DNA of 64,000 nt from the NCBI GenBank assembly GCA_965204535.1, contig CBDBEV010000001.1, positions 2,112,001 to 2,176,000 of the forward strand, read 5' to 3'. The translations under genes and the position numbers were made by a program. Below, in pieces: positions 42,236 to 42,757 of this stretch. Within the stretch, counting starts at the first letter, position 1. Each line of letters opens with the position of its first letter. The notes below the pieces were generated by a model. It ran no database searches, had not been told where the DNA came from, and saw only the letters and a list, made by a program, of their open reading frames with translations. This DNA comes from a bacterium. Lineage in GTDB: Bacteria > UBA8248.

Positions 42236-42330
42236 TTGACGGATGCTCCGGATAGCGGCATCCTGATTCTCACTCCCCCGGTGGCTTTGACCGCCGGGTG
42301 CGGGGCCTCTCACGAGGCCCCTACTTTTCT
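42236..42330 (+). ncRNA. Second copy of the promoter plus structured small RNA
   Basis: TTGACG, 17 nt, CATCCT; CCCGGTGG-CTTTGA-CCGCCGGG; GGGGCCTC-TCAC-GAGGCCCC-TACTTTTCT. Confidence 0.6.
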
Positions 42331-42440
42331 AAAAATGGTATTTGGGATGAGAGAGCAGGCGGTTTCCTGGAAGCCGGTTTTCTATTATATTTGACCTAAT
42401 ATACAATAAAGTCGACTTGAGGCCGAAGAGGGAGAAAGCA

Positions 42441-42632
42441 ATGAATCAAGTTGCTGAAAATGATGAACTTATCGCACGTATGAAGAAAGCGGCCCAGCGA
42501 TCGATGACCCCCGAGGAAAAAAGAGCGCAAAGGATATCTTACATTCTCTCCGTGGTCGGCAGAGATGATGATTCGACCAAGAAGGAGGTTGAGGATTATA
42601 TTGATGAGCGTTACGGGAACACGTATGAATGA
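42441..42632 (+). CDS. Small antitoxin-like protein (type seen upstream of Fic genes)
   Basis: RMKKAAQRSMTPEEKRAQRISYI; RBS GGAG; ATGA overlap with the next remnant. Confidence 0.55.
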   Translation: MNQVAENDELIARMKKAAQRSMTPEEKRAQRISYILSVVGRDDDSTKKEVEDYIDERYGNTYE

Positions 42633-42733
42633 TCTTGTACGAACTTATAAGGAAACTCCTGAGCATACAGATAGCGAATCATTAGGGAATTTGTAGACTA
42701 CGCCGCCAGATATTCTCACCAAAACCGTTTTCC
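42629..42733 (+). pseudogene. Decayed 5' remnant of a coupled gene (possibly a Fic toxin)
   Basis: Starts MILYELI at the ATGA overlap and hits an early stop; the Fic assignment is recalled similarity only. Confidence 0.35.
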
Positions 42734-42757
42734 ATTACCAAGCCCGCCAACTGGTGA
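42734..42757 (+). repeat. Copy of the NYN gene 3' end (ITKPANW*)
   Basis: ATTACCAAGCCCGCCAACTGGTGA versus 40059-40082 ATCACCAAGCCTGCCAACTGGTGA (22/24, both changes synonymous). Confidence 0.85.

Follow-up and report, generated by a model that had tools for sequence, protein, structure and literature searches.

We analysed a 64,000-nt stretch of a bacterial genome (GTDB lineage Bacteria; UBA8248; assembly GCA_965204535.1, contig CBDBEV010000001.1, positions 2,112,001 to 2,176,000 of the forward strand), referred to as the window herein, in which a predicted 60-nt RNA element occurs twice: once before an intact gene for a predicted NYN ribonuclease, and once as an orphan followed by the last codons of a second such gene. 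We propose, with a probability of roughly 60%, that this RNA and the NYN gene constitute a type III-like toxin-antitoxin (TA) family with a NYN/PIN-fold nuclease as the putative toxin. This proposal is based on the architecture of the loci, the linkage between RNA and NYN genes, the covariation within the RNA, and the pattern in which the nuclease has been lost. A bolder version, which we put forward tentatively, is that these would be the first NYN/PIN-fold toxins, inhibited in trans by a 60-nt RNA that hosts may keep as selected immunity and that phages may carry as counter-defence mimics.

A covarying two-hairpin RNA is linked to NYN genes

The two copies of the element (copy 1, 39391-39450; copy 2, 42272-42331) are 83% identical over 60 nt and are the only strong copies in the 4.56-Mb genome. 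Both fold as two hairpins followed by a U-tract, with z of about -4 (copy 2, z = -4.2), and each is preceded by a promoter-like site of the form TTGACG-17-CATnnT, the two hexamers of copy 2 lying at 42236-42241 and 42259-42264. A consensus promoter scan listed the promoter of copy 1 alone, the site of copy 2 falling below its threshold. Rfam gave 0 gathering hits in the window (best sub-threshold match 22.4 of 50 bits) and none on the RNA in seven other loci, and an E-value threshold likewise yielded no family.

The search with the protein yielded 47 genome loci, of which 11 belong to the window's genus and some are near duplicates; the RNA lay upstream of the NYN gene in 46, and the 47th had a variant two-hairpin leader. 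The pair occurs in nine phyla (eight by record titles, plus Actinomycetota), and plasmids and prophages are among its carriers. Covariation extends over both hairpins, with two-sided changes at 17 of 19 pairs, and the score of 0.437, for a structure drawn from the same sequences that were scored, compares with 0.214 ± 0.012 after shuffling, with 0 of 500 shuffles reaching it and slid controls at or below 0.143. Thirty-three metagenome copies that were found separately and aligned to the model agree with this covariation. The first hairpin is closed by a fixed tetraloop and the hairpin junction is conserved in sequence, while the second loop varies freely from 3 to about 50 nt. One locus of a compared genome (L054:2389-2500 in G007; G- and L-labels denote genomes and loci, respectively) has a hairpin insertion of about 50 nt inside the terminator-stem loop, with both stems intact.

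Where the RNA stands relative to the gene is not fixed. Of the best 40 of 78 viral NYN loci, 32 had a hit to the RNA model, 28 upstream, three convergent (in near-identical prophages) and one divergent; two of the eight misses have no upstream DNA, and the other six fold as two hairpins and a U-tract. Behind its own TTGACA promoter-like site, the RNA of a Paenarthrobacter plasmid and that of a Mycobacterium prophage lie on the strand opposite NYN, immediately beyond the stop codon of the gene; in the viral contig L304 it is divergent and points away from the NYN gene. Two RNA units occur at L142/L282 and L267, and on the E. coli plasmid L277 a terminator follows four related hairpins, of which the first three are arranged as a 33-nt repeat. 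The arrayed and doubled units at L277:637-790 (NZ_CP122630.1) and L267:1220-1335 (NZ_CP075745.1) both precede NYN genes on small E. coli plasmids. The NYN proteins of all these layouts fall within one clade in a quick tree (41 rows, support 100).

As a cis-acting leader could not work from a convergent or divergent position, this free gene layout, together with the RNA's own promoter-like site, argues for a trans-acting partner. In most loci the RNA does lie 2-40 nt before the start codon, where its terminator-like hairpin crowds the ribosome-binding region, as would be expected if it were only a cis-acting leader, an attenuator or autoregulatory binding site that keeps NYN low, with orphan copies as by-products of deletion bias. 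We consider this decidedly unlikely given the opposite-strand and divergent copies, the repeat arrays, and the orphan RNAs that stay intact while the NYN stub beside them decays.

The nuclease belongs to the HEC-09 family

The NYN protein in the window matches the PADLOC HEC-09 profile over its full length (E 5.7e-41) and Pfam NYN at 3.9e-8. Its acidic residues D8, D115, D140 and D142 are invariant in a 96-sequence alignment, so that both a full-length profile match and the conserved aspartates place it in HEC-09. Its structural model has a pLDDT of 97.5, with 2qip and the MARF1 NYN domain as the closest solved structures in a fold search. The family comprises 424 representative proteins at E up to 1e-30, annotated as unknown, and the loci closest to the window's are from Nitrospinota. 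NCBIfam has no model for the NYN protein or for the 63-aa protein described below.

HEC-09 was defined as Hma-embedded candidate 9 (PADLOC PDLC04163), a single-gene candidate with a MARF1-like NYN fold and an acidic active site (10.1101/2024.01.29.577857). The main text of that paper, which treats the same protein family, contains 0 occurrences of 'ncRNA' or 'non-coding', and the text available names toxicity for HEC-03 and HEC-04 alone. The gene in the window is not embedded in Hma: its neighbours are agmatinase, membrane protein, endonuclease/exonuclease/phosphatase (EEP), HigBA and HAD genes, and four neighbours compared with PADLOC gave no Hma hit.

The RNA-linked proteins share the Pfam NYN domain with the LabA/DUF88-like NYN.COG1432 group, which includes Pseudomonas NicB/HspA and whose function is listed as unknown, with no RNA partner mentioned in the portion of the source consulted (PMC5499597). 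Distant relatives of the window's NYN are annotated as HspA or NicB, and this HspA/NicB-like clade is separate in the tree from the RNA-linked clade and has no RNA model hit. Its members at L268, L269, L271, L272 and L279 (Klebsiella, Xanthomonas, Pseudomonas and other plasmids) have a different leader, a larger first structure followed by a terminator, possibly a sister RNA family; some members are fused, by annotation, to an Xre/MbcA-type antitoxin domain. Within the RNA-linked proteins, loop variants of the RNA track NYN subclades in a quick tree. Longer NYN proteins of about 255 aa with an internal insertion are encoded behind a variant two-hairpin RNA of the GCGUGC loop type at L143 (G021) and L144 (G020).

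The nuclease is repeatedly lost while the RNA is retained

Searches that started from the RNA showed how often it stands without its nuclease. In the search of the window's class, model hits below about 35 bits were treated collectively as likely generic terminators and left out; among the pattern matches, those without a model hit were dropped (47 of 80 in metagenomes and 5 of 17 in viral contigs). An intact NYN was missing from 13 of 24 copies in the window's class (51 genomes). The 33 true hits among the 80 metagenome pattern loci listed comprised 13 with a full-length gene, 6 with a broken one, 10 without NYN and 4 too short to judge, giving 16 of 29 informative loci without an intact NYN. 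In an unrelated order, that of a Desulfobacteraceae genome, 18 of 149 genomes held 20 copies, 15 of which lacked an intact gene (9 broken, 6 without NYN; one of the 5 full-length loci was the seed). The 12 true hits among 17 viral pattern loci included 2 intact genes, 1 stub and 9 copies without NYN (6 distinct). Of 151 genomes from the Silicimonas family, 2 (the seed included) share the window's combination of a live module with a dead one next to it. At 25 loci inspected for open reading frames (ORFs), no other gene family recurred behind orphan RNAs.

Loss of the nuclease with retention of the RNA, which the original prediction had read at copy 2 as toxin loss with antitoxin retention, recurs widely, and the link between RNA and NYN that it drew here extends to many other loci. 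At the same locus HigB, in relatives, and Fic have been lost too, with their partners retained. HigB, which serves as a known-toxin control at the same site, is truncated or frameshifted in G002, G012, G016 and G020, with its HTH antitoxin retained. At the agmatinase (speB) end of this locus, the RNA persists in G003, G012 and G019 although parts of NYN are missing, and in G001 NYN is split.

The viral copies without NYN are at L126, L129, L132 and L139 (in all four at about 1476-1542, minus strand) and at L130, L133, L135, L137 and L140, some among phage-structural-like ORFs. They are candidate phage-borne antitoxin mimics, or simply reused terminators.

Several comparisons bear on whether orphan RNAs are under selection. 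Scored with a model built outside the genus, sole orphans reached 66-82 bits (mean 75) against 57-80 bits (mean 70) for copies beside intact genes, a difference that is not significant (p = 0.11). The best-kept orphans are in genomes where no intact cognate NYN was found, and copies in genomes that also hold an intact module (62, 69.5 and 56 bits) score below the sole orphans (one-sided p = 0.018, from about two independent lineages). In five stub alleles, distinct disabling changes in the NYN stub number 6 over codons 1-14 and 12 over codons 1-17, against 0 at 25 invariant positions of the RNA; the corresponding values, p = 0.034 and 0.002, overstate the case because the five alleles are related. 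An intact cognate NYN was not found in the four genomes with these alleles, two of which are single contigs.

Besides the relatedness of these alleles, several points weigh against a TA system. The NYN gene is about ten times the length of the RNA, so random deletion alone would remove it more often; the hotspot trims many genes (EEP, HAD, membrane gene); and some of the broken NYN genes in assemblies may be sequencing or assembly errors. Two hallmarks of type III systems are missing: there is a single RNA unit in the window and at most loci, with arrays only at L142/L282, L267 and L277, and, judged from the alignments, two nested hairpins explain the covariation without a pseudoknot. Five of the 14 plasmid or phage records fetched, those of the HspA/NicB-like clade, had no hit to the RNA model beside the gene. 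The weightiest of these points is that the one HEC-09 member tested in E. coli, cloned where possible with about 150 bp of upstream DNA, gave no phage defence (10.1101/2024.01.29.577857). If the TA reading is correct, this inertness may follow from the RNA having been cloned along, the nuclease being held off unless a phage disturbs the RNA.

Constant co-occurrence and a conserved hairpin junction would fit any RNA-protein complex, and it was within Hma defence systems that the family was originally identified (10.1101/2024.01.29.577857). The RNA might serve the nuclease as a cofactor, sensor or substrate instead of inhibiting it, as in a ribonucleoprotein that senses a phage product or an enzyme that requires RNA. 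This would leave the frequent loss of the protein, with the RNA under constraint, unexplained, and the RNA has no variable guide segment, since loop 1 is fixed and loop 2 is free in length. We judge such a role unlikely.

A second RNA-NYN module stood at the slot of copy 2

Copy 2 is followed at 42734-42757 by ATTACCAAGCCCGCCAACTGGTGA, which over its 24 bases has 2 differences from the NYN 3' end, each of them synonymous. The original prediction had described a promoter, the RNA, about 400 bp of AT-richer DNA and the last eight codons of NYN. Copy 2 and the tail are real, and the match with its two synonymous changes was borne out, but the tail amounts to seven codons plus the stop, and the gap (GC 0.43-0.49 versus about 0.65) is not anonymous: an intact 63-aa ORF lies in it, together with 18 codons left over from a Fic gene. 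Profiles gave no support for further NYN sequence preceding the tail, or for a degraded beginning of NYN behind the RNA copies of G017 and G020, and neither is claimed.

The tail is just 24-29 nt long and is not detected by the protein profile, which would be expected if the match were due to chance or mis-assembly and copy 2 had never had a NYN gene. By chance, 0.00 such tails are expected in the window (100 shuffles), and the 29-nt match has E = 0.003-0.005 in a genome-wide blastn search. Single contigs from two samples of one study, one of which may be the source sample, show 0 differences from copy 2 through the tail to the HAD gene; since these unbroken contigs are identical, the arrangement is real, and the mis-assembly that the original prediction had allowed for was not found. 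Relatives' alleles already refute a chance origin, which is extremely improbable.

These alleles come from 22 congeners compared between the agmatinase and HAD hydrolase genes, a stretch that is highly variable among them. At the HAD-end slot, four relatives (G004, G006, G008 and G022, with two copies in G008) have a promoter, the RNA and the first 41-62 nt of NYN, and the promoter before the RNA and NYN stub in G022 is of the same type as that of copy 2. G012 and G016 have the 3' half of the RNA and, behind it, the beginning of NYN fused to its end (..YVDGF joined to KPAN..). The tail itself is also present in G002, G012, G016 and G020 and is decayed in G017, and G010 has another decayed piece of the NYN 3' region. 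Because relatives carry the RNA with NYN stubs or a start-end fusion at this slot, the comparison indicates that a second RNA-NYN module once stood where copy 2 is now and lost its nuclease, as had been predicted. At the HAD end of G012 (L028) and G016 (L032), the 63-aa gene and a Fic start are inserted in inverted orientation into the RNA copy, destroying the first hairpin.

In G002, G017 and G020, the RNA is followed by the 63-aa gene, an intact Fic gene of 203-206 aa with HPFINGNGRTAR, and then the NYN tail. The Fic motif has the pattern HPFxxGNGRxxR. In the window, an in-frame deletion of 564 nt at a 6-nt microhomology has reduced the Fic gene to 18 codons. The 63-aa protein has 29% identity (pairwise E 9e-10) to the product of a small gene upstream of Fic on a Phaeobacter plasmid, and a Rhizobium plasmid has the same small-gene/Fic layout; there is no RNA beside Fic at either of these two plasmid loci. 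As the pair occurs on plasmids without the RNA, we regard it as a separate cassette whose small protein is likely the Fic antitoxin. An association of the RNA with the Fic cassette was rejected on the basis of these two loci. With an intact Fic motif in G002, G017 and G020 and a conserved small upstream partner on two alphaproteobacterial plasmids, the pair resembles VbhA/FicA-like Fic systems. A plasmid tblastn search with the 63-aa protein gave no match, homologues being found only upstream of Fic hits. The alleles thus compared indicate that the NYN of the second module was replaced by the small-protein/Fic cassette, which then lost its own toxin through an internal deletion in this lineage; this replacement had been overlooked in the original prediction.

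Copy 2 appears constrained in the past and is probably now eroding

Copy 2 was expected to have kept its structure, and 17 of 19 model pairs are indeed retained. Its loop has nonetheless changed to UUUG from UUCG (42288), a basal pair conserved in the family is broken at 42323, and 4 U are left of the U-tract; contigs of related strains carry the family bases at 42288 and 42323. At 62 bits, copy 2 is among the lowest-scoring RNA copies.

Relative to the sister genome G002, copy 2 has 4 differences over 59 sites; copy 1 has 1 over 59, the adjacent spacer 3 over 105, and the four-fold sites of the two nearest genes 3 over 81. The promoter region of copy 2 shows 0 differences over 82 positions. 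Compared with G020 and G017, copy 2 has 7 differences in each case, over 59 and 58 sites respectively, and the adjacent spacer has 33-34 over 104. This slow change relative to the spacer suggests that the RNA has been constrained for most of its time at the slot. The neutral decay that the original prediction had named as part of a refuting condition is partly seen, over the short time scale, where copy 2 changes no more slowly than nearby neutral sites.

It is an evenly balanced matter whether, within the family as described, copy 2 itself is a neutral leftover that survives because deletions removed neighbouring DNA, a reading compatible with our explanation for the family as a whole. The divergence from the sister genome, the changed loop, broken pair and short U-tract, the lower scores of RNAs that coexist with an intact module, and the destruction of the slot copy in G012 and G016 all fit this view; the comparison with G020 and G017, although its counts are small, and the promoter region identical to the sister's do not. 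Copy 2 was long under constraint and is probably now eroding, in a genome where copy 1 makes it redundant. The suggestion that it is kept to cross-neutralise the NYN at 39459 found no support, as orphans score best where no intact cognate NYN was found and copy 2 scores low. The 23 sequencing runs listed included no RNA holder and are uninformative on expression; several runs holding parts of the window are sponge metagenomes.

Proposed mechanism and relation to known systems

In the mechanism that we propose, the promoter would make an abundant, constitutive short RNA, predicted at about 60 nt and ending at the U-tract, and rare read-through would yield the NYN nuclease. The RNA would bind the predicted ribonuclease and hold it inactive, and loss of the RNA through stalled transcription, loss of the element or phage infection would free it. 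Such a nuclease would be costly, so that hosts would delete it and keep the RNA, and an orphan RNA that stands alone may confer protection from incoming modules (anti-addiction). Copy 2 is the surviving RNA of a second module whose nuclease gene gave way to the small-protein/Fic cassette.

ToxN-like toxins have the MazF/Kid fold, and AbiF has the HEPN fold. The NYN protein is not homologous to ToxN, CptN, TenpN or AbiF: Pfam gives NYN alone, and the fold search returned 2qip and the MARF1 NYN. In its order of promoter, RNA element, terminator and nuclease gene, the family resembles ToxIN, CptIN and TenpIN, and the type III arrangement of a nuclease gene behind a promoter and a terminator hairpin is seen here at consensus level. 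The antitoxins of those systems are pseudoknots in tandem arrays (PMC3401426), whereas here there are two plain hairpins, usually single and sometimes on the opposite strand. The toxin-free RNA copies in viral contigs recall the pseudo-ToxI mimic of phage PhiTE (PMC3475682).

The abiF-motif RNA of Clostridioides difficile (RCd22) likewise combines a promoter, a short hairpin RNA, an intrinsic terminator and read-through into a predicted RNase gene, and acts in trans as well as in cis (10.1101/2025.04.15.648962). AbiF is linked to ancestral Cas13 proteins, whereas the putative toxin here is of the NYN/PIN type, and the RNA of about 60 nt has no match to the abiF motif (Rfam RF03085). Type II orphan antitoxins and anti-addiction modules, in which the toxin is lost and the antitoxin kept (PMC7354431), are paralleled by the HigBA and small-protein/Fic pairs of this locus; those antitoxins are proteins, whereas the orphan here would be an RNA. 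No NYN-RNA pair was found in the literature, including a term search of PMC8632094, with subscription papers and supplements largely outside its scope and a prior description therefore possible; the family is apparently undescribed.

If the TA reading is correct, a third nuclease fold under a minimal 60-nt RNA would widen a class in which the RNA-antitoxin systems compared use ToxN-like or AbiF toxins, and a large NYN family annotated as unknown would gain a testable function. Tests should be easy because members are found on E. coli plasmids of 3-5 kb, and the many natural orphans make RNA anti-addiction directly testable. The interest lies more in the RNA-NYN family than in the eroding copy 2.

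Layout of the variable locus

The features of the locus are collected in Table 1.

Table 1. Features between the agmatinase end and the HAD hydrolase gene, in window coordinates.
Feature	Positions	Strand	Basis or remarks
Sigma-70-like promoter of RNA copy 1 (TTGACG, 17 nt, CATAGT)	39353..39381	+	9/12 consensus matches; consensus match only
RNA copy 1: UUCG-loop hairpin, then terminator-like hairpin and 7-U tract	39385..39449	+	Fold; 72.8 bits, model trained outside genus
Intact NYN/PIN-fold predicted RNase, 207 aa, HEC-09 family	39459..40082	+	Pfam NYN 3.9e-8; PADLOC HEC-09
Duplicated 3' end of agmatinase (speB-like) gene; scar of recombination that closes module 1	40121..40174	+	Repeat comparison; relatives' scars vary in length
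HigB-like toxin and HTH antitoxin pair, just 5' of copy 2	41570..42187	+	
Promoter-like site of RNA copy 2 (TTGACG, 17 nt, CATCCT)	42236..42264	+	Alignment to copy 1
RNA copy 2 (orphan), 62.0 bits	42266..42331	+	Fold, covariance model; U-tract shortened at likely recombination junction
Intact 63-aa gene, conserved upstream partner of Fic family	42441..42632	+	
Fic gene remnant, 18 codons	42629..42685	+	In-frame internal deletion
Last 7 codons and stop of second NYN gene	42734..42757	+	
HAD hydrolase; in most relatives it anchors the variable locus on the right	42764..43477	-	

Copies of the agmatinase 3' end recur in the window at 39283-39336, 40121-40174 and 43624-43677 and vary in length in relatives. 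As these ends are repeated and of varying length, they suggest that neighbours' alleles are taken up in a homology-anchored, non-site-specific manner and that the locus expands in this way. For the speB end, site-specific integration was considered and is not favoured, since the repeated ends measure 38-186 nt and no integrase was found among the ORFs of 33000-50000 (11 proteins scanned).

After the HAD gene, 43910-45865 contains an ankyrin-repeat gene and two related AT-rich ORFs of no known family, at a position not shared by the relatives compared. Between the two modules, a gene for a 120-aa membrane protein (40176-40538) is followed by the EEP gene (40564-41412). The EEP gene is often shortened to 36-69 nt or missing in relatives, with the membrane gene, which has five copies in the window's genome, retained; the two are possibly another protector-toxin pair.
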